Source: Minisyncoccota bacterium (GTDB lineage: Bacteria; Patescibacteriota; Minisyncoccia; Phycocordibacterales; UBA5272). Taken from it: a stretch of DNA of 64,000 nucleotides. This document shows positions 1-36,156 of this stretch, piece by piece. Every line of letters begins with the position of its first letter. Position 1 is the first letter of the stretch. The stretch is taken from assembly GCA_046350775.1 (NCBI GenBank), contig JAXLZS010000001.1:90441-154440 (forward strand). The letters run 5' to 3'. The translations under genes were made by a program, and so were the position numbers. Under the pieces are notes generated by a model that was not told the origin of the DNA, made no database searches, and saw nothing but the letters and a program-made list of their open reading frames with translations.

Positions 1-1458
1 GGAGGATTTTCTGGAACCAATCAGACTTCCAGAACAATCAAGGATTCTTATGCAACAGGAAATTTAACTTTGTCTGGTGGAGCAGGAGGTAATGGTGGCT
101 CTGGTGGAAGTGGTGGAAATGGTGGAAATGGTGTATCTGCCGGTACCGGAGGTAATGGTGGTAATTCAGGAACTGTTGGCGCTGGAACAGTAGGAGGAGT
201 TAAATATGGTGGTGGATTTACTGGCTATAATTTAGGTACAATTAGCAATGTTTATTCTTTAGGTAATGTGTCAGTTATAGGATCAGATGGTGGTGCGGCT
301 GGTAATGGAGGCACAGCTGGTAATGGTGCAAGTGGAGGAATAAGCGGTGCTGGGGGAGTAGGTGGTAATGAAGGAGCTACAGCAGCAGCTGGAGCTGGCG
401 GAGCTTTACATGCTGGAGGATTGATCGGATACAATTTTACAGGAGGTATAGTCCAGTATTCTTGGACTGCTGGCAATACTGTTTTGGCTACAGGTGGATC
501 AGGCGGATCTCCTGGCACAAGAGGTAATGGTGGTAATGGTGGAGCCGGAGGAACTCTTGCTGGTGGAAATGGTGGAACTGGTGTTGCTGGTAGTGCTGGA
601 GGAGCTGGAGGAACAAGTAATGTGGGAGGTTTGATTGGTTCTAATATTACTACAGGTTCTTTAAATACTAGTTACGCATCTACGACTGTTATAGTTATAG
701 GAGGAAATGGCTCGGTTGGTGGTGTTGGAGGAAATGGAGGCTCTGGTGGTGCTGGAGGATCAAGCGGATCAGGAAATGGCGGTACCGGACAAAATGGTTT
801 GATAGGTGGTGCGGGAGGAGCTGGAGGTTTGGTTGTTGCAGGTGGTTTAGTAGGAGATAATACTGGAATAATAACAAACGCTTATTCTAGTGGGAATGTC
901 ACAGCTACAGCCGGAAGTCCTGCTGTTGGTGGTACCGGTGGAAATGGAGGAAACGGAGGAGCTGCTGGAGGTGGAACAGTTGGAGCAAATGGTAGCGGTG
1001 GTAATGGTGGAGCCGGAGGTGCTGGTGCTAGTGCTTATGTCGGTGGACTTTTAGGTAGTCATGCAACTTCTCTCGTTACAAATACCTATTCTACTGGGGT
1101 ACCTTTAGCAAGTAAGACTTCAGGTGCTAATGGTGGTAGTGGAGGATTAAAAGGTGTTGGTGGATCTGGTGGAACTAATGGTAGTACTGGAACCACAGGA
1201 GCTTCCACAGCATTACAATATGCTGGAGGTATAGTGGGTAATCCGGTCAGTGGTACATGGTCTTCTAGTTATTGGAATACCAACACTTCAGGAAAAACTG
1301 ATGGAGCTGGAAATGCTACAACTCCAAGCAACACTTCAGGAAAAACTACTAATCAGATGAAGCAACAATCAACTTTTTCTGGTTGGGATTTTACTAGTTT
1401 TCCAACTTGGAAGATTATGGAGAATACCACATATCCATATTTTAATTATCAGACAGCT

Positions 1459-4400
1459 CCTGATGCTCCAATTATCGGTACAGCTACCGCTGGAAATGGA
1501 CAAGCAACAATTACATTTACACAGCCTGCAAATATTGGCGGAGCACCTATCACAAGTTATACAGTCACTTCGAATCCTGGCGGATTTACTGCATCAGCAG
1601 GCACTTCTCCAATTACGATTACTGGACTTACAAACGGTACTACATACACATTCACTGTTACTGCAACTAACGCATACGGCACAAGTATTTCTTCTGCTAC
1701 TACAAATTCCGTAACTCCTGCCACTGTTCCTGATGCCCCAACTATTGGTTCAGTAACTGCTGGAAATGGACAAGCAACAGTCATTCACTCCTCCAGTATC
1801 AAATGGAGGATCATCAATCACATATTACACTGTCACTTCAAGTGGAGGACAAACTGCTACAGGTGGATCATCACCAATTACAGTTCTAGGATTAAACAAC
1901 GGTACCACTTACACCTTCACAGTGACAGCTACAAACGTCACAGTTGGTACCAGTACTCCATCTTCTACAAGTAATTCCGTCACTCCTGCCACTGTTCCTG
2001 ATGCTCCAACAGGAGTCACAGCTGTTCGTGGAAATGGAGAGGCTTATATATCATTTACTCCAGGTAACAACGGAGGTTCAACTATTTTGTATTACACTGT
2101 CACTTCAAGTGGAGGACAAACTGCTACAGGTGGATCATCACCAATTACAGTGACAGGTCTTTCAAATGGTTCCTCATACACATTCACTGTTACTGCAACT
2201 AATATTGTAGGTACAAGTTCTTCTTCTACAATTAGTGCCCCAATAACTCCTGCTGTTCCTGATGCTCCAACTATTGGTTCAGTAACTGCTGGAAATGGAC
2301 AAGCAACAGTCACATTCACTCCTCCAGTATCAAATGGTGGATCATCAATCACATATTACACTGTCACTTCAAGTGGAGGACAAACTGCTACAGGTGGATC
2401 ATCACCAATTACAGTTCTAGGATTAAACAACGGTACCACTTACACCTTCACAGTGACAGCTACAAATGCAGTTGGTACCAGTACTCCATCTTCTACAAGT
2501 AATTCCGTCACTCCTGCCACTGTTCCTGATGCTCCAACAGGAGTCACAGCTGTTCGTGGAAATGGAGAAGCTTATATATCATTTACTCCAGGTAACAACG
2601 GAGGTTCAACTATTTTGTATTACACTGTCACTTCAGAGTGGAGGACAAACTGCTACAGGTGGATCATCACCAATTACAGTGACAGGTCTTTCAAATGGTT
2701 CCTCATACACATTCATGACACTGCAACTAATATTGTAGGTACAAGTTCTTCTTCTACAATTAGTGCCCCAATAACTCCTGCCACTGTTCCTGATGCTCCA
2801 ACTATTGGTTCAGTAACTGCTGGAAATGGACAAGCAACAGTCACATTCACTCCTCCAGTATCAAATGGTGGATCATCAATCACATATTACACTGTCACTT
2901 TAGTGGAGGACAAACTGCTACAGGTGGATCATCACCAATTGCAGTTCTAGAGTTAAACAACGGTACCACTTGCACACTTCACAGTGACAGCTACAAATGC
3001 AGTTGGTACTTGTTACTCATCTTCTACAAGTAATTCCGTAACTCCTGCCACTGTTCCTGATGCCCCAACAGGAGTCACAGCTGTTCGTGGAAATGGAAGC
3101 TTATATATCATTTTACTCCTGGAAACAATGGAGGCTCAACTGTTTTGTATTACACTGTCACTTCAAGTGGAGGACAAACTGCTACAGGTGGATCATCACC
3201 AATTACAGTTCTAGGATTAAACAACGGTACCACTTACACCTTCACAGTGACAGCTACAAGGCCCAAGTCGGCACCAGTACTCCATCTTCTACAAGTAATT
3301 CCGTCACTCCTGCCACTGTTCCTGATGCTCCAACTATTGGTTCAGTAACTGCTGGAAATGGACAAGCAACAGTCACATTCACTCCTCCAGTATCAAATGG
3401 AGGATCATCAATCACATATTACACTGTCACTTCAAGTGGAGGACAAACTGCTACAGGTGGATCATCACCAATTACAGTTCTAGGATTAAACAACGGTACC
3501 ACTTACACCTTTACAGTGACAGCTACAAATGCAGTTGGTACCAGTACTCCATCTTCTACAAGTAATTCCATCCTCCTGCCACTGTTCCTGATGCTCCAAC
3601 TATTGGTTCAGTAACTGCTGGAAATGGACAAGCAACAGTCACATTCACTCCTCCAGTATCAAATGGTGGATCATCAATCACATATTACACTGTCACTTCA
3701 AGTGGAGGACAAACTGCTACAGGTGGATCATCACCAATTACAGTTCTAGGATTAAACAACGGTACCACTTACACCTTCACAGTGACAGCTACAAATGCAG
3801 TTGGTACCAGTACTCCATCTTCTACAAGTAATTCCGTCACTCCTGCCACTGTTCCTGATGCTCCAACAGGAGTCACAGCTGTTCGTGGAAATGGAGAAGC
3901 ATATATCATTTACTCCAGGTAACAACGGAGGTTCAACTATTTTGTATTACACTGTCACTTCAAGTGGAGGACAAACTGCTACAGGTGGATCATCACCAAT
4001 TACAGTGACAGGTCTTTCAAATGGTTCTCATACACATTCTGTTACTGCAACTAATATTGTGGGTACAAGTTCTTCTTCTACAATTAGTGCCCCAATAACT
4101 CCTGCCACTGTTCCTGATGCTCCAACTATTGGTTCAGTAACTGCTGGAAATGGACAAGCAACAGTCACATTCACTCCTCCAGTATCAAATGGTGGATCAT
4201 CAATCACATATTACACTGTCACTTCAAGTGGAGGACAAACTGCTACAGGTGGATCATCACCAATTACAGTTCTAGGATTAAACAACAGTACCACTTACAC
4301 CTTTACAGTGACAGCTACAAATGCAGTCGGCACCAGTACTCCATCTTCTACAAGTAATTCCGTCACTCCTGCCACTGTTCCTGATGCTCCAACTATTGGT

Positions 4401-7050
4401 TCAGTAACTGCTGGAAATGGACAAGCAACAGTCACATTCATACTCAGTATCAAATGGTGGATCATCAATCACATATTACACTGTCACTTCAAGTGGAGGA
4501 CAAACTGCTACAGGTGGATCATCACCAATTACAGTTCTAGGATTAAACAACGGTACCACTTACACCTTCACAGTGACAGCTACAAATGCAGTTGGTACCA
4601 GTACTCCATCTTCTACAAGTAATTCCGTCACTCCTGCCACTGTTCCTGATGCTCCAACAGGAGTCACAGCTGTTCGTGGAAATGGAGAAGCTTATATATG
4701 TTTACTCCAGGTAACAACGGAGGTTCAACTATTTTGTATTACACTGTCACTTCAAGTGGAGGACAAACTGCTGAGTGGATCATCACCAATTACAGTGACA
4801 GGTCTTTCAAATGGTTCCTCATACACATTCACTGTTACTGCAACTAATATTGTAGGTACAAGTTCTTCTTCTACAATTAGTGCCCCAATAACTCCTGCCA
4901 CTGTTCCTGATGCTCCAACTATTGGTTCAGTAACTGCTGGAAATGGACAAGCAACAGTCACATTCACTCCTCCAGTATCAAATGGTGGATCATCAATCAC
5001 ATATTACACTGTCACTTCAAGTGGAGGACAAACTGCTACAGGTGGATCATCACCAATTACAGTTCTAGGATTAAACAACGGTACCACTTACACCTTTACA
5101 GTGACAGCTACAAATGCAGTTGGTACCAGTACTCCATCTTCTACAAAGTAATTCCGTAACTCCTGCCACTGTTCCTGATGCCCCAACAGGAGTCACAGCT
5201 GTTCGTGGAAATGGAGAAGCTTATATATCATTTACTCCTGGAAACAATGGAGGCTCAACTGTTTTGTATTACACTGTCACTTCAAGTGGAGGACAAACTG
5301 CTACAGGTGGATCATCACCAATTACAGTTCTAGGATTAAACAACGGTACCACTTACACCTTCACAGTGACAGCTACAAATGCAGTCGGCACCAGTACTCC
5401 ATCTTCTACAAGTAATTCCGTCACTCCTGCCACTGTTCCTGATGCTCCAACTATTGGTTCAGTAACTGCTGGAAATGGACAAGCAACAGTCACATTCACT
5501 CCTCCAGTATCAAATGGTGGATCATCAATCACATATTACACTGTCACTTCAAGTGGAGGACAAACTGCTACAGGTGGATCATCACCAATTACAGTTCTAG
5601 GATTAAACAACGGTACCACTTACACCTTCACAGTGACAGCTACAAATGCAGTCGGCACCAGTACTCCATCTTCTACAAGTAATTCCGTAACTCCTGCCAC
5701 TGTTCCTGATGCCCCAACTATTGGTTCAGTAACTGCTGGAAATGGACAAGCAACAGTCACATTCACTCCTCCAGTATCAAATGGAGGATCATCAATCACA
5801 TATTACACTGTCACTTCAAGTGGAGGACAAACTGCTACAGGTGGATCATCACCAATTACAGTTCTAGGATTAAACAACGGTACCACTTACACCTTTACAG
5901 TGACAGCTACAAATGCAGTTGGTACCAGTACTCCATCTTCTACAAGTAATTCCGTCACTCCTGCCACTGTTCCTGATGCTCCAACAGGAGTCACAGCTGT
6001 TCGTGGAAATGGAGAAGCTTATATATCATTTACTCCAGGTAACAACGGAGGTTCAACTATTTTGTATTACACTGTCACTTCAAGTGGAGGACAAACTGCT
6101 ACAGGTGGATCATCACCAATTACAGTGACAGGTCTTTCAAATGGTTCCTCATACACATTCACTGTTACTGCAACTAATATTGTAGGTACAAGTTCTTCTT
6201 CTACAATTAGTGCCCCAATAACTCCTGCCACTGTTCCTGATGCTCCAACTATTGGTTCAGTAACTGCTGGAAATGGACAAGCAACAGTCACATTCACTCC
6301 TCCAGTATCAAATGGTGGATCATCAATCACATATTACACTGTCACTTCAAGTGGAGGACAAACTGCTACAGGTGGATCATCACCAATTACAGTTCTAGGA
6401 TTAAACAACGGTACCACTTACACCTTTACAGTGACAGCTACAAATGCAGTTGGTACCAGTACTCCATCTTCTACAAGTAATTCCGTCACTCCTGCCACTG
6501 TTCCTGATGCTCCAACTAATGTTGCTGGAACTATTGGAAATGGAAGTGTTAGTGTTTCTTGGTCAGCTCCAGCTTCAAATGGAGGATCTCCTATAATTTT
6601 GTACACTGTCACAGCTAGTCCTGGAGGACAAACTGCTACTTCAACTGCTACAAATTTGACGATGACAGGATTAAACAATGGTACCACTTACACCTTTACA
6701 GTGACAGCTACAAATATTTACGGTACCAGTGTTTCTTCTGGTTCGAGTGCGGGTCTGACTCCAGCCGATGTTCCTGGTACTCCTACAAACTTGGCTGCGG
6801 TCGTAAGAGACTCTAGTATAGATCTTTCTTGGACAGCTCCAGCTTCAAATGGAGGTTCACCTTTAATTGATTATGTTATTCAATATAAACTTACAACAGG
6901 TGGGACTTGGACAACATTTGCTGACGGTATAAGTACTGTACCTGCTGTGACGATCACAAGTTTATCAAACAACAATTCTTATGACTTTCGTGTTTATGCA
7001 AAAAATATTGTAGGAACAAGTTCTCCTTCTACTCAAGTCAGTGCCGCTCC
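1459..7050 (+). repeat. Coding tandem array with a period of ~261-270 nt. About 18 copies are near-identical and alternate between subtype A (PDAPTIGSVTAGNGQATVTFTPPVSNGG...) and subtype B (PDAPTGVTAVRGNGEAYISFTPGNNGG...). Three more divergent FN3-like copies lie at the ends.
   Basis: Identical ~50-nt strings recur at ~1738, 2267, 2798, 3331, 3598, 4117, 4387, 4909, 5449, 5707 and 6247 for type A, and at ~2006, 2541, 3071, 3859, 4660, 5185 and 5980 for type B. Each unit carries the FN3-like consensus TYTFTVTATN. Confidence 0.9.
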
Positions 7051-7489
7051 TGGTGCTCCAGCACAAGTTTTGATTCAGAGTTTCAGTAATTTGACTACAC
7101 CAAACATAGCTACTTTGGTACGTATTACAAATGAAGGTTCTGTCGCTTATGAGTACACATATACATGGTGTGTTACGAATTCTTCTACGAATACTTGTGG
7201 AGGAGGAGACGACATCTTCAGTTCTACTGCTGCAAAATTGATTCAGCCTGGAGCGAATTTTGACACAACATTGACTTCAACAGTGCCGACAGCTGGTAAT
7301 TATTTCTTCCATATAAATGTTCAATTTGGATCTGATTCTTCAACAGCTAAACAATCATTTACAGCTACAACAGTTACCACTCCAGTGACTCCACCAAGTG
7401 GGGGTGGAGGAGGTGGTGGCGGTGGAGGGGGAGGTTCTCCTTTACCGGTAGTTGATGTGCCTGCCACAAACACTTCTTGTATCGGAGCA

Positions 7490-7650
7490 GATTTCAATCA
7501 TGATGGAAAAGTAAACTCTGTAGACTTTTCAATTATGTTAGCATTTTGGAAGACAGCTTATCCATTCAAAAATGCTTGTGTGGATATAAACAAGGATAAA
7601 CAAGTAAACTCTGTAGACTTTTCAATTCTACTTTATCAATGGGGAAAAGA
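7490..7650 (+). other. Type-I dockerin module made of two 22-aa Ca-binding repeats, DFNHDGKVNSVDFSIMLAFW and DINKDKQVNSVDFSILLYQW.
   Basis: It has the canonical dockerin loop D-x-N/D-x-D-G/K-x-V-N-x-x-D followed by a helix, present twice. A 24-nt string, gtaaactctgtagacttttcaatt, is duplicated at 7511 and 7604. Confidence 0.8.
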
Positions 7651-7687
7651 TCCTGTATTATTTAAAAAAGATTAATAAACAATAATT

Positions 7688-8308
7688 ATGAATAAAAAAT
7701 ATTTATTATATATAATGTTTACATTTATTGGATTAAAATTATTTTTCTTACCACAAAATATTTTTGCGGCAGAATTAAATTTTAAAATCCTATCAGACAA
7801 AAGTTCAGATCCAGCTTCTAAAGTAGTCGAAGTACGCATAGATCCAAAAGGAAAAATGTTAAATGTTATAGATGGTGTTATATCTTTTGACGGATCAGGT
7901 TCAGACAATCTTTATGTGCAAGTTGAAAATGGAAATTCTATTCTATCTCTTTGGCCTACGCCACCAATTTACGATAAAGATAGTAAATCTATCCATTTTA
8001 TAGGTGGAATTCCAAATGGATTTGATAAAGAAGGCTTACTTTTTGTCTTAAAGATAGATCAAAAGTCCGCAGGCGATTTATCAGTTTTATTTTCAAACGG
8101 TTTTGCTTATTTAAATGACGGTAAAGGCACTCAAGAAAATATTTCTTCTAGTCCTCTTGCTATTAGTGGGAATCTTGTTAAGACTGGAAAAGTTTTTGAG
8201 ATCAATAAAAAAATTATTAACATAAAAGATGTTATAATAATTTTATCTGTTATAGTCATAGCTATTTTTACAATTTTTTATGTATATAAAAAAAATATTA
8301 AAAAATAA
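7688..8308 (+). CDS. Secreted, C-terminally TM-anchored protein carrying one cohesin-like beta-sandwich domain.
   Basis: There is an N-terminal signal peptide (MNKKYLLYIMFTFIGLKLFFLPQNIFA) and a C-terminal hydrophobic anchor (IIILSVIVIAIFTIFYVYKK). The central ~140 aa are homologous to the N-terminal domain of the next gene, e.g. SLWPTPP...IHFIGGIPNGF matches SLWVEDPA...ITFNGGLPTPG. Confidence 0.6.
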   Translation: MNKKYLLYIMFTFIGLKLFFLPQNIFAAELNFKILSDKSSDPASKVVEVRIDPKGKMLNVIDGVISFDGSGSDNLYVQVENGNSILSLWPTPPIYDKDSKSIHFIGGIPNGFDKEGLLFVLKIDQKSAGDLSVLFSNGFAYLNDGKGTQENISSSPLAISGNLVKTGKVFEINKKIINIKDVIIILSVIVIAIFTIFYVYKKNIKK

Positions 8309-26727: not shown

Positions 26728-26860
26728 AATTTTAATAGTATCTAATTAATTTCTAAGATTGATTTAATTATAACTATTATTTTGATTTCTATCAATAAAA
26801 AAGAGGGGAGTTATCCACAGAATGGATATTCCGCCTCTTTTTTTAAAAATAAAAATTATA

Positions 26861-29780: not shown

Positions 29781-30317
29781 ATGAATACAAAATTAAAAAA
29801 GCAAGACAAGGTTTTAAAAAAAGTTTCTCCTTTAGCAAAAAATATTTCTAAAACTTTAAATAAAAATAATTCTAAAAAAATAAATGCCGCTGAAAAGCAT
29901 CATCTTCCAGATCATCATTTTAAAAAAGTCTCAGTAAAGAAAAGTAAATTTGGTCTTGGCCTTTTTGCTGGTGAACCTATTAAAAAAGGCGAGGTGATAA
30001 TAGAGTATATTGGAAATATTTTGACAGATAAAGAGACAGATAAGATAGCTGATAGTAGATATATTTTTTCAGTAAAAAAAGATTACAATATCGACGGATC
30101 ACCTAGATGGAATATAGCTAGATATTGCAATCATTCTTGTGACGGGAACGCTGAAAGTGAAGTGAAAAAAAATAGAGTTTTTGTAAGAGCAATAAAAAAT
30201 ATAAAAGAAGGTGAAGAGATAGTTTATGATTACGGTGAAGAATATGTGAAAGAAATTTTAATAGAGAGAGATGGTGGATGTGGGTGCGATGCAAAAAAAC
30301 ATTTGTATCATGATTAG
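29781..30317 (+). CDS. SET-domain lysine methyltransferase with a Lys-rich N-terminal tail.
   Basis: GLGLFA...RYCNHSCDGN...IVYDYG...CGCDAKKH post-SET cluster. Confidence 0.8.
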   Translation: MNTKLKKQDKVLKKVSPLAKNISKTLNKNNSKKINAAEKHHLPDHHFKKVSVKKSKFGLGLFAGEPIKKGEVIIEYIGNILTDKETDKIADSRYIFSVKKDYNIDGSPRWNIARYCNHSCDGNAESEVKKNRVFVRAIKNIKEGEEIVYDYGEEYVKEILIERDGGCGCDAKKHLYHD

Positions 30318-30512
30318 AAAATAAAAAATAAAATTTAAAAAAATTTTCAAAAATATTTTTTATAAATAAAAAAGTTATCCACAAAAATTTTTTAAAAAAG
30401 TATTGTATAAATTTTTTTTGAATGAGATAATTATATTAAGAGAGGCAGACCGAAGGTCCAAGGTCAAAAAATTAAAAGCGCACTCTCTAGTATTAAATAC
30501 TAAATAAAAAAT

Positions 30513-30602
30513 ATGGCAGCAAAGAAAAAAGCAGCAAAGAAAGTTGCAAAGAAAGCAGCTAAGAAAACTGCAAAGAAAAAAGCAGCTAAGAAAAAAAAGT
30601 AA
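30513..30602 (+). CDS. 29-aa histone-H1-like / KAAKK-repeat basic protein (MAAKKKAAKKVAKKAAKKTAKKKAAKKKK).
   Basis: ATG at 30513 and TAA at 30600. A stem-loop lies immediately downstream. Too short for the ORF track. Confidence 0.55.
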   Translation: MAAKKKAAKKVAKKAAKKTAKKKAAKKKK

Positions 30603-30623
30603 TTAACTTTTTATCTTAAACTA

Positions 30624-30660
30624 GAATCCTCTGCGTCTCCCACGACAGAGGATTTTAGTT
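30624..30660 (+). terminator. Stem-loop terminator after the KAAKK gene.
   Basis: aatcctctg...cagaggatt followed by ttt. Confidence 0.5.
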
Positions 30661-30740
30661 TGTCTAATTTTTGCTATAATATAGGTATTATTAGTTAATT
30701 TATAGGATTTATAAATAAAGCATTAAAATATAAACAATTT

Positions 30741-31097
30741 ATGAATATAAAAGTAAAAGGTGGTGAAATTGAAATAACAGAAGCTATTCGTGATTATGCG
30801 GAAAAGAAAATTGGTGAAGCTTTAGAAAAATTTAATAGTCAAAATTTGTCAGCAGAAGTTGAGCTCGGCAAGACTACTAGCCATCATCAACACGGTGATA
30901 TTTATAAGACTTCTGTCATCGTACATGGATCTCATAAAAATATCTTTGTTGATGTCATAAAAGATGATCTTTATGCATCTATCGATGAAGCTAAAGAAAA
31001 ATTAGAAAATAAATTGGCTGATGCGAAAGATAAAAAGAAAACAGTTTCTCATAAACTTGCTTTAAAATTTAAAAATCTATTTAAAAGAGATAATTAG
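30741..31097 (+). CDS. hpf: Ribosome hibernation promoting factor (HPF/RaiA).
   Basis: MNIKVKGGEIEITEAIRDYAEKKI resembles HPF. Confidence 0.8.
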   Translation: MNIKVKGGEIEITEAIRDYAEKKIGEALEKFNSQNLSAEVELGKTTSHHQHGDIYKTSVIVHGSHKNIFVDVIKDDLYASIDEAKEKLENKLADAKDKKKTVSHKLALKFKNLFKRDN

Positions 31098-31112: not shown

Positions 31113-31781
31113 ATGAAATTAAATTGGAAAAGTATTTTACTTATAATTTTAGTATTAATATTAATTGGTATAGGGATAATTTTTAGAAATAAAGGTGAAT
31201 ATGTACCGGATACGAGTGATAAAGGTATAGCAACTACTACAAATCAAGATATAAATTTAAAAAAAAATAATCAAAAAACTATGGACAATACAAACGAACA
31301 AAAAACTTACACAGAAGCTATACTTCACACAAGTATGGGAGACATATCTTTTGAATTTTCAAAAGACAAACCTCTTACAACTGCTAATTTTCAAAAACTT
31401 GCAGAAAGTGGATTTTATGATGGTGTAAAATTTCACAGAGTTATAAAAGATTTTATGATTCAGACAGGGGATCCACTGTCAAAGGATGATACAAAAAAAG
31501 CATATTGGGGTACTGGTGGACCAGGATATAAATTCCAAGATGAATTAACAGGGGCTGAAAAATATACTATAGGTACAGTAGCTATGGCAAATAGTGGGCC
31601 AAATACAAACGGATCACAATTTTTTATCATGACCAGCAATATGGGATTGCCTCCTTCTTATACAGTATTTGGTAAGGTTGTAGCAGGTATTGATGTGGCT
31701 ATGAAAATCCAAGAAGTAGCGACAGATGCTAGTGATAAACCACTTTCTCCTGTCACTATAAATTCAGTAGATTTGAAATAA
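31113..31781 (+). CDS. Cyclophilin-type peptidyl-prolyl isomerase with an N-terminal TM anchor.
   Basis: HTSMGDISFEF...FHRVIKDFMIQTGDP...GSQFFI. Confidence 0.9.
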   Translation: MKLNWKSILLIILVLILIGIGIIFRNKGEYVPDTSDKGIATTTNQDINLKKNNQKTMDNTNEQKTYTEAILHTSMGDISFEFSKDKPLTTANFQKLAESGFYDGVKFHRVIKDFMIQTGDPLSKDDTKKAYWGTGGPGYKFQDELTGAEKYTIGTVAMANSGPNTNGSQFFIMTSNMGLPPSYTVFGKVVAGIDVAMKIQEVATDASDKPLSPVTINSVDLK

Positions 31782-35681: not shown

Positions 35682-36156
35682 TAGAAAAAACTCTTATTTT
35701 TACTCGAAAATTTATTTTGACATAAAAAATATTTTCCGCTAGATTGCATTCGTATTTTGCTTTGGAGTATAATTTATACATAAAAATTTGTGAGTGAATG
35801 TGAATTTATTTTTATTTAAAAAAATATAATATTTAAAATATATGACACCTGACAAAGATATTAATAATGATCAAAATGTCGATTTACATTTTGTTACTGG
35901 TATAGAAAAAGAAAAGTTTCAAGATCCAAAAATTAGTCAATTTTTAAATATTTACAACATTATCACAAGTGCCGCTTTTAAATCTTCTGTGCAAAATAAA
36001 ATCAGCCAATCAGTCTAATTCTTAACATAAAATTTGCTGTGGATAAAATTTAGTTTTATATTTTTTGATATGCTAAACTAAACTAGTAATAAAAGCTCTT
36101 ACTTTAAGTATTTTAAGCATTATTAACAGATTAAAAATTAAATTTTATTTAAAAAT

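Follow-up and report, generated by a model that had tools for sequence, protein, structure and literature searches.

A SET-domain methyltransferase gene and a Lys/Ala-repeat mini-gene kept together in Patescibacteria: a candidate enzyme and nucleoid substrate

The DNA analysed here is a 64,000-nucleotide (nt) stretch of a Minisyncoccota genome (GenBank assembly GCA_046350775.1, contig JAXLZS010000001.1, positions 90,441 to 154,440 of the forward strand), referred to below as the window, which is AT-rich, with a G+C content (GC) of about 30%. On its plus strand it carries the gene of a SET-domain protein lysine methyltransferase of 178 amino acids (aa) at 29781-30317 and, on the same strand, an open reading frame (ORF) at 30513-30602, hereafter the mini-gene, which starts 195 nt past the SET stop codon and encodes the 29-aa peptide MAAKKKAAKKVAKKAAKKTAKKKAAKKKK, with 16 Lys and 10 Ala residues and a net charge of about +16. 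Both genes had been pointed out in a preliminary description of the sequence, where they were read as a methyltransferase and its histone-like substrate; the peptide and coordinates given there for the mini-gene are exact. The co-occurrence of the two genes in related genomes, which that description had named as a check, was followed in 80 loci taken from species-representative genomes, each containing a SET homologue; 75 of these are assessable Patescibacteria loci, three have no downstream sequence at all and two are proteobacterial. In 69 of the 75 the mini-gene follows SET on the same strand; counted among them are two copies truncated by the end of the contig (L054 and L015, the latter recognised via its leader).

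The SET protein matches Pfam PF00856 over residues 58-152 (E=1.4e-25, 90.2 bits against a cut-off of 22.4) and has 2051 homologues, mostly in Patescibacteria, the closest being found in Nomurabacteria, Paceibacteria and Parcubacteria metagenome-assembled genomes. The NHSC motif of the S-adenosylmethionine-binding and catalytic pocket, noticed earlier, can be read as N117-H118-S119-C120 (30129-30140, plus strand), and in an alignment of 36 homologues N117, H118, C120 and Y151 are invariant; further SET motifs are GLGLFA, a GxG-type motif of the N-SET strand, and Y149/Y151 within IVYDYGEE. The post-SET Cys cluster that had been claimed holds as a motif but not as a set of three cysteines, since C167-x-C169-x4-H174 (30279-30302, plus strand) is a variant of the CxCx4C zinc site with His for the third Cys. 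Among the same 36 sequences C167, C169, H174 and Y176 do not vary, the segment aligns to CNCGAKKC of MLL1, and the C/C/H variant is plausibly still a zinc site. The AlphaFold2 model reaches a predicted local distance difference test score of 81-97 over residues 41-178 and falls below 50 at the N-terminus, and a Foldseek search with it returned MLL1, G9a/GLP, NSD and SETD2 as the best PDB matches (E about 1e-9 to 1e-10, probability 1.00). With an invariant NHSC motif, Y151 and C/C/H ligands, and a predicted MLL1/G9a-like fold, the enzyme looks catalytically intact. Its single NCBIfam match was to the LegAS4 effector model, at 43 bits against a 550-bit cut-off, and a search of the literature found no paper on SET domains in the candidate phyla radiation (CPR)/Patescibacteria.

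The SET core, from about residue 40 to 178, is preceded by a Lys-rich N-terminal tail (residues 1-39) of the kind that had been reported before; 30% of the first 40 residues are Lys and the segment is predicted to be disordered. Within this variable tail the motif KKQ(S/D)K(I/V)LKK, at residues 5-16 (window 29781-29900), stands out by its nearly invariant K7, Q8, L12 and K13, and could serve for automethylation, targeting or the binding of a partner. The idea that KKQSKILKK enters the SET active site as a pseudo-substrate found no support, the AlphaFold2 model leaving residues 1-39 disordered.

Across the sampled loci 68 complete copies of the mini-gene were collected, which encode 61 distinct peptides of 21-70 aa (median 35), composed of 47.5% Lys, 28.6% Ala and 11.4% Val and containing not a single Asp, Glu, Phe, Trp or Tyr. 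The peptide of the window contains AAKK four times and AKKA twice, and in these tandem motifs it belongs with the AKKA/AAKK-repeat tracts. Conservation of the ORF had been proposed earlier as a check, and it is borne out in all 68 copies: the ATG-GCA start and the in-frame stop are kept despite a threefold range of lengths, and the codon-position entropy, summed over the columns of the well-aligned first 14 codons, is 2.6, 3.2 and 9.4 for positions 1, 2 and 3, respectively, a dominance of third-position variation that we read as the mark of selection at the peptide level. Taken at the sequence level, the mini-ORF is a conserved protein-coding gene and not a chance reading frame. AAG makes up 58% of the Lys codons in the mini-genes and 44% in the window copy as against 16% in the long ORFs of the window, which would be expected if long runs of A are avoided or if efficient translation is selected for; the choice of AAG and GCA codons is an unusual one. 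The mini-ORF lacks a Shine-Dalgarno sequence, as do the neighbouring SET, HPF and PPIase genes. The earlier view that the mini-gene is unannotated stands in part: Joint Genome Institute (JGI) gene calls on near-identical contigs do include a 29-aa product, but an exact look-up of ten mini-peptides in a collection of 15 billion proteins found none of them. A homology search with a 40-aa mini-peptide as query likewise gave no match at E<=0.001.

The linkage between the two genes was followed in both directions. A composition-based scan for Lys/Ala-rich ORFs in six frames over about 900 kb (the window plus the 80 loci) found exactly one such ORF in every positive locus, always downstream of SET and on its strand, and none elsewhere. 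The SET proteins of loci that keep the pair are merely 50-60% identical to one another, and the genes 3' of the mini-gene differ, being HPF-PPIase-Fmt-Def-PriA in the clade of the window, SecA-MurF in the largest clade and PilMNO in another; at least three rearrangements have altered the genes that follow, and SET and mini-gene persist side by side through all of them. HPF is the neighbour of the mini-gene in only 12 loci, all of one clade. In the reverse direction, metagenome contigs were searched with a pattern made up only of the DnaA box and GAGAG element described below and the first mini-gene codons, SET not being part of it; 22 true mini-genes were recovered, and SET precedes the mini-gene on the same strand in 18 of the 19 whose upstream flank is long enough. 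The two proteobacterial SET loci have no mini-gene.

The spacer between SET and mini-gene has a median length of 342 nt. In three unrelated loci, a reverse-transcriptase ORF and a small four-helix ORF resembling an intervening sequence lie between SET and the DnaA box of the mini-gene (L004 6513-9423, L009 3817-7601, L037 6543-9706), which suggests a recurrent insertion site for retroelements at this place.

Polycationic tracts also occur fused to SET proteins. The SET homologue of the Rhodopseudomonas locus L076 (5989-6690) has a 97-aa Lys/Ala-rich tail after its SET domain, and all of its 120 best relatives (P0121-P0240, from Rhodopseudomonas, Bradyrhizobium and Tardiphaga) end in such C-terminal tails, which in these Nitrobacteraceae proteins measure 75-125 aa (median 85 aa) with about 25% Lys and 26% Ala. 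Together they make up an uncharacterised SET enzyme family of free-living alphaproteobacteria in which an H1-like tail is built in; some are annotated 'Nuclear protein SET'. One case is found in Patescibacteria as well, where the SET protein of L075, a locus that has no mini-gene, ends in the Lys/Ala-rich tail VTKKKASTTAKKTTKKTGK.

Upstream of the mini-gene lies a control region whose most constant element is AGTTATCCACA (30373-30383, plus strand), which includes the perfect DnaA-box 9-mer TTATCCACA at 30375-30383. The element is perfect in 63 of 63 loci, at positions -63 to -66 from GAGAG, and with five divergent loci (L072-L078) added the box is perfect, at a constant spacing, in 68 of 68. 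It is followed by a -35-like block, TTGTAT (30403-30408), within the conserved alignment columns tATTGTat, which is weak in that it matches the consensus at 3/6 positions, and, 17 nt past it, by an extended -10-like block, TGaGATAAT (30423-30431), whose alignment columns are nearly invariant and which takes the form TGnGATAAT or, in the main clade, TGnCATACT. We infer that these blocks, both on the plus strand, act as promoter elements and that transcription starts at or just before AGAGAG, which would put the centre of the DnaA box about 60 nt upstream of the transcription start. The box suggests that supply of the peptide is coupled to the initiation of replication.

The window contains three perfect copies of TTATCCACA. 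The other two, at 26811-26819 on the plus strand and 36038-36046 on the minus strand, lie one inside a hairpin between the 3' end of the valyl-tRNA synthetase (ValRS) gene and the start of the Hsp20 gene and the other about 350 nt upstream of priA (primosome protein) on the priA strand; both are possibly further DnaA-regulated sites. The box at the mini-gene was considered as a replication origin and rejected as such, being a single box among three unclustered ones in 64 kb, with a GC skew that follows gene orientation without a turn at 30.4 kb.

Between the -10-like block and the start codon the mini-gene carries a conserved leader RNA motif (30439-30488, plus strand), which begins about 7 nt past that block and consists of a clamp, P1, formed by GAGAG (30440-30444) and CUCUC (30483-30487), and a hairpin, P2 (arms 30448-30451 and 30462-30465), whose loop holds an invariant GGUC (30455-30458) and is followed by an A-rich strand. 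The minimum-free-energy fold of the leader has z = -2.5, and 57 distinct sequences share its architecture. RNAalifold predicted no structure on a raw MAFFT alignment of the upstream regions, because that alignment is gappy; covariation was assessed on trimmed cores in a 53-sequence alignment with the structure given. Five of the seven P2 pairs show compensatory changes, 90% of the P2 cells are paired as against 32-52% when the partners are slid, and the covariation score was reached by no shuffle. P1 never varies and is supported by conservation only. A covariance model of the leader (R1) found one match per locus, always before the mini-gene, and one match in the window. Against Rfam, only tRNAs reach the gathering score in the window, and a permissive search of 30280-30760 gave only chance-level matches overlapping the leader (E>=2.8); the weak PyrR, SraG and sRNA41 matches that came up for the leader and terminator were rejected as terminator-shaped chance hits far below their gathering scores.

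A palindrome upstream of the mini-gene had also been described, and it is present, although the 16-mer given for it has one t too many; the true element, tagtattaaatacta (equal to tAGTATTaAATACTa, with a single central a), is 15 nt long and lies at 30488-30502 on the plus strand, between the leader motif and the start codon. Its arms are kept and its centre varies (A, C or T), in the clade of the window only (L003-L011, L056 and L069). The main clade has TTTGYATAAT in its place, 12-14 nt before the mini-gene ATG (for example at about 4240-4250 in L021), and this sequence, a TG followed by a perfect TATAAT, could be a second promoter inside the leader that would give a nearly leaderless mRNA.

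On the 3' side, the terminator hairpin that had been ascribed to the mini-gene is confirmed: an intrinsic terminator hairpin of 46 nt (30617-30662, plus strand; dG -25.4 kcal/mol, z = -7.8), which no shuffle equals in stability, is followed by the U-rich tail UUUAGUUUG. A hairpin with a T-run stands 3' of the mini-gene in 68 of 68 loci. The CUCCCA loop of the window (30637-30642) conforms to YCCCA, which is kept in 59 of the 68 on at least 40 different stems and occurs in no other hairpin of the window; this degree of loop conservation is unusual for a plain terminator, and the loop may be a recognition site for a protein or RNase. Kissing of the 5' GGUC loop with the 3' YCCCA loop was considered and rejected, since compatible flanks occur in only 9 of 57 loci and co-variation is absent. 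Judged by these signals, the mini-gene is its own, independently terminated transcription unit. For most genomes a common operon is rejected because a strong intrinsic terminator stands between SET and mini-gene in 29 of the 49 short-gap loci; in the window, 62 nt without a terminator separate the SET stop from the DnaA box, and read-through from SET into the mini-gene is possible in the clade to which it belongs.

A prokaryotic SET enzyme that meets a basic chromatin protein is a known theme, and the chlamydial and archaeal precedents invoked in the preliminary description were found in the literature. The cpnSET protein of Chlamydia pneumoniae methylates Hc1 and interacts with both Hc1 and Hc2, and Go1-SET of Methanosarcina mazei methylates the chromatin protein MC1-alpha (PMC3980110). 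As in the chlamydial case, the cells considered here would have a bacterial SET enzyme and a small Lys-rich protein side by side, and the variable length of the mini-peptides recalls Hc2, which is described as consisting of Lys-rich pentamer repeats in variable number (PMC2848022). The mini-peptides are, however, much shorter than Hc1 and Hc2 (21-70 versus 125-237 aa), and the chlamydial description includes neither a conserved gene adjacency nor a counterpart of the DnaA box or leader hairpin found here. In the search with the Pfam HC2 model (PF07382), the best of four longer orthologues scored 16.9 bits (E=0.007) against a cut-off of 40 and the window peptide gave no match; the NCBIfam model of Burkholderia H1-like proteins gave 12 bits against a cut-off of 80. 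Similarly, Go1-SET is a minimal prokaryotic SET enzyme whose substrate is an endogenous small DNA-binding protein, but MC1 is a folded archaeal protein of about 90 aa with one methylated lysine, whereas the mini-peptide is of low complexity and probably disordered.

The label 'histone-H1-like' that had been given to the mini-peptide holds for composition and for the AAKK/AKKA repeats but not for family membership: Pfam Linker_histone gave no match, no globular winged-helix domain is found in the peptide and the Hc2 score is below threshold. The repeat chemistry is that of the C-terminal tails of HupB, HbhA, Ku and H1, and tracts of this type make up the DNA-binding tails of H1 and Hc2. In the mycobacterial proteins and H1, however, the tracts are appendages of folded proteins, and in the mini-gene nothing but the tract is encoded. 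Lysine 26 of histone H1 is methylated by SET enzymes, and methyl-lysines on the HbhA and HupB tails reportedly protect against proteolysis, according to work of Pethe et al. from 2002; the mycobacterial methyltransferase is not known to be a SET enzyme. Experiments on M. tuberculosis HbhA and HupB have shown that their AKKA-repeat tails, 39 aa long in HbhA, are both required and enough for DNA binding irrespective of sequence, and AKKA repeats also occur in the ribosomal protein RplV of M. tuberculosis (PMC10665949). PAKKA repeats have been described as modulating the DNA binding of mycobacterial Ku (PMC3553676). The Nitrobacteraceae SET proteins (L076) share 50-55% identity with the Patescibacteria enzyme in the SET core and likewise associate a Lys/Ala-rich polycationic tract with SET; their tails are fused at the C-terminus and contain Asp, Glu, Ser and Gly, unlike the Patescibacteria tract, which is a separate and acid-free gene product. 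The Pseudomonas protein AlgP is described as histone H1-like, rich in Lys/Ala/Pro repeats and associated with polyphosphate granules (PMC9239181), and such tracts may, by likeness to it, bind polyphosphate as well as DNA; AlgP differs from the mini-peptide in being long, in having KPAA repeats and in that no SET partner is described. What appears to be new in the Patescibacteria loci is the phylum-scale conserved adjacency, with the basic partner cut down to a bare repeat peptide of 21-70 aa unknown to Pfam and NCBIfam, and the combination of a putative promoter with an invariant DnaA box, a covarying leader motif absent from Rfam and a fixed-loop terminator.

Taken together, these observations lead us to favour, tentatively and with somewhat less than an even chance of being right, the reading in which the SET enzyme methylates a free-standing Lys/Ala nucleoid polycation encoded next door. 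Two adjacent and separately transcribed genes are kept together in Paceibacteria-type Patescibacteria; the peptide would be an abundant nucleoid protein that coats nucleic acid, probably chromosomal DNA, neutralising its charge and compacting it, with polyphosphate or RNA as possible alternative ligands. Its description as an abundant nucleoid polycation is drawn from the DNA binding of AAKK/AKKA tracts in HbhA and HupB (PMC10665949). By analogy with cpnSET and Hc1 and with Go1-SET and MC1-alpha, and given the genetic linkage and the fusions, the mini-peptide is the most plausible substrate of SET, which would methylate its lysines, or else the peptide may recruit SET to the same polyanion; methylation might tune binding or protect the peptide from proteolysis. 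Transcription of the mini-gene would be tied to the replication initiator via the invariant DnaA box, and the 5' clamp and hairpin together with the 3' fixed-loop hairpin probably set mRNA stability or permit feedback. The fuller proposal that Paceibacteria have a minimal bacterial chromatin system, with an H1-tail-like polycation made in step with replication through DnaA, controlled at the RNA level from both ends and served by a dedicated SET writer next to it, is one that we regard as unlikely in its entirety. The synthesis of histones in S phase would be the analogue of such a replication-coupled polycation supply.

Several observations weigh against a functional pairing and are accommodated by an explanation in which the two genes are neighbours by descent, the peptide binding the nucleoid or another polyanion while SET modifies something else (a ribosomal protein, HU, EF-Tu, itself or a host protein) and the gene order being frozen in small, slowly rearranging genomes. 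On the upstream side, ValRS adjoins SET in 70 and Hsp20 in 65 of the 80 loci, as strongly conserved as the mini-gene itself, and because the order Hsp20-ValRS-SET is equally conserved, inherited synteny could explain the adjacency of SET and mini-gene. The terminators found between the two genes, the promoter-like blocks and DnaA box that belong to the mini-gene, and the 19 loci in which other genes, a retroelement included, intervene between them likewise weigh against the pairing, and the association is not absolute, since six Patescibacteria SET loci have no mini-gene within 1.5-6 kb and the mini-gene of L099, followed by SecA, has no SET within 9.9 kb. Moreover, the matches of the mini-peptides in Pfam and NCBIfam are sub-threshold and compositional only, and the resemblance to H1, Hc2 and HbhA is one of composition; the Patescibacteria SET enzyme has a Lys-rich N-terminal tail of its own, like a polycationic anchor, and the fused tails of other SET proteins could correspond to that tail, as a device for DNA targeting, and not to a substrate. 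Descent alone does not readily account for the persistence of the pair through at least three rearrangements of the downstream genes, for the fusion of SET to Lys/Ala-rich tails in a distant lineage and once in Patescibacteria, or for the fact that known prokaryotic SET enzymes act on small basic chromatin proteins, and we consider this explanation somewhat unlikely, and less likely than the enzyme-substrate reading.

The very short, basic and apparently highly expressed gene with its structured conserved 5' leader would also suit a small extra ribosomal protein, an RNA chaperone or a trans-acting tRNA-binding helper, with the leader as an autoregulatory mimic of its RNA site and with SET modifying the peptide or not. 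Eukaryotic SET enzymes modify ribosomal proteins, the leaders of ribosomal-protein genes offer a precedent, RplV of M. tuberculosis has the same AKKA repeats and a weak compositional match to the Lys/Ala-rich C-terminal tail of a ValRS model was seen, but this match, like that to Hc2, is far below threshold. The next gene in the clade of the window encodes a ribosome hibernation factor (HPF), and the ribosomal interpretation is weakened because HPF follows the mini-gene in that clade only, SecA or PilM being found elsewhere; no ribosomal genes are linked, the DnaA box points to replication and not to ribosome synthesis, and we hold this interpretation to be improbable. Much less probable still is an outward action, with a membrane-active or host-directed peptide and SET as an effector on host chromatin proteins. 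It would suit episymbiotic Patescibacteria, the peptides are positively charged and contain some Val, methylation of host histones by SET effectors is well documented for bacteria of the Legionella and Chlamydia type (PMC3980110), and the LegAS4 model was matched, if far below its cut-off; neither product, however, has a signal peptide or a hydrophobic face, Val and Ala being the sole apolar residues of the peptide, no secretion genes are consistently linked, and a housekeeping role agrees better with control through a DnaA box and with conservation that is near-universal among free groundwater lineages. That the mini-ORF is untranslated and merely part of a purine-rich non-coding RNA between two hairpins is scarcely credible: the sequence is T-poor and alternative frames are also open in 16-18 of the 68 loci, and neither a Shine-Dalgarno sequence nor an entry in the protein collection speaks for translation, but the neighbouring genes lack a Shine-Dalgarno sequence as well, the frame is kept in every copy at 21-70 codons behind an invariant ATG-GCA, entropy is concentrated in third positions, and no acidic or aromatic residue occurs in the 61 variants.

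Bacterial SET enzymes are mostly discussed as effectors on host histones, endogenous bacterial substrates being known in few cases. Should the two genes encode an enzyme and its substrate, control of a histone-tail-like nucleoid polycation by lysine methylation would be widespread in bacteria with tiny genomes, which bears on the origin of chromatin modification, and an endogenous writer and substrate module of chromatin would be native to bacteria and not aimed at a eukaryotic host. The locus provides a very simple test system, with a 178-aa enzyme and a 29-aa peptide that can be synthesised, from a huge and largely uncultured radiation. Regardless of the pairing, a mini-protein family unknown to Pfam and NCBIfam, a leader RNA motif and a putative promoter with an invariant DnaA box are useful for the annotation of Patescibacteria genomes and for the study of their cell cycle.

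Two further features of the window were observed away from the locus. Its first part (1-8000) has a GC content of 0.41-0.44 as against about 0.30 in the remainder and carries a row of ORFs with fibronectin-type-III repeats, one of them with a dockerin domain (70-1974, 1766-2950, 3795-4622, 4417-5151 and 5114-7675), several of which overlap in different frames; this part may represent a giant surface-protein gene that is fragmented or frameshifted, or else DNA that was acquired. The cyclophilin gene downstream of the mini-gene is a 222-aa ORF in the window (31113-31781) and a 342-aa one (DUF6804 plus Pro_isomerase) on the near-identical JGI contig L104 (4322-5350), where the genes past cyclophilin are offset by about 350 nt relative to the window; the difference in length and the offset together point to a strain-level indel.

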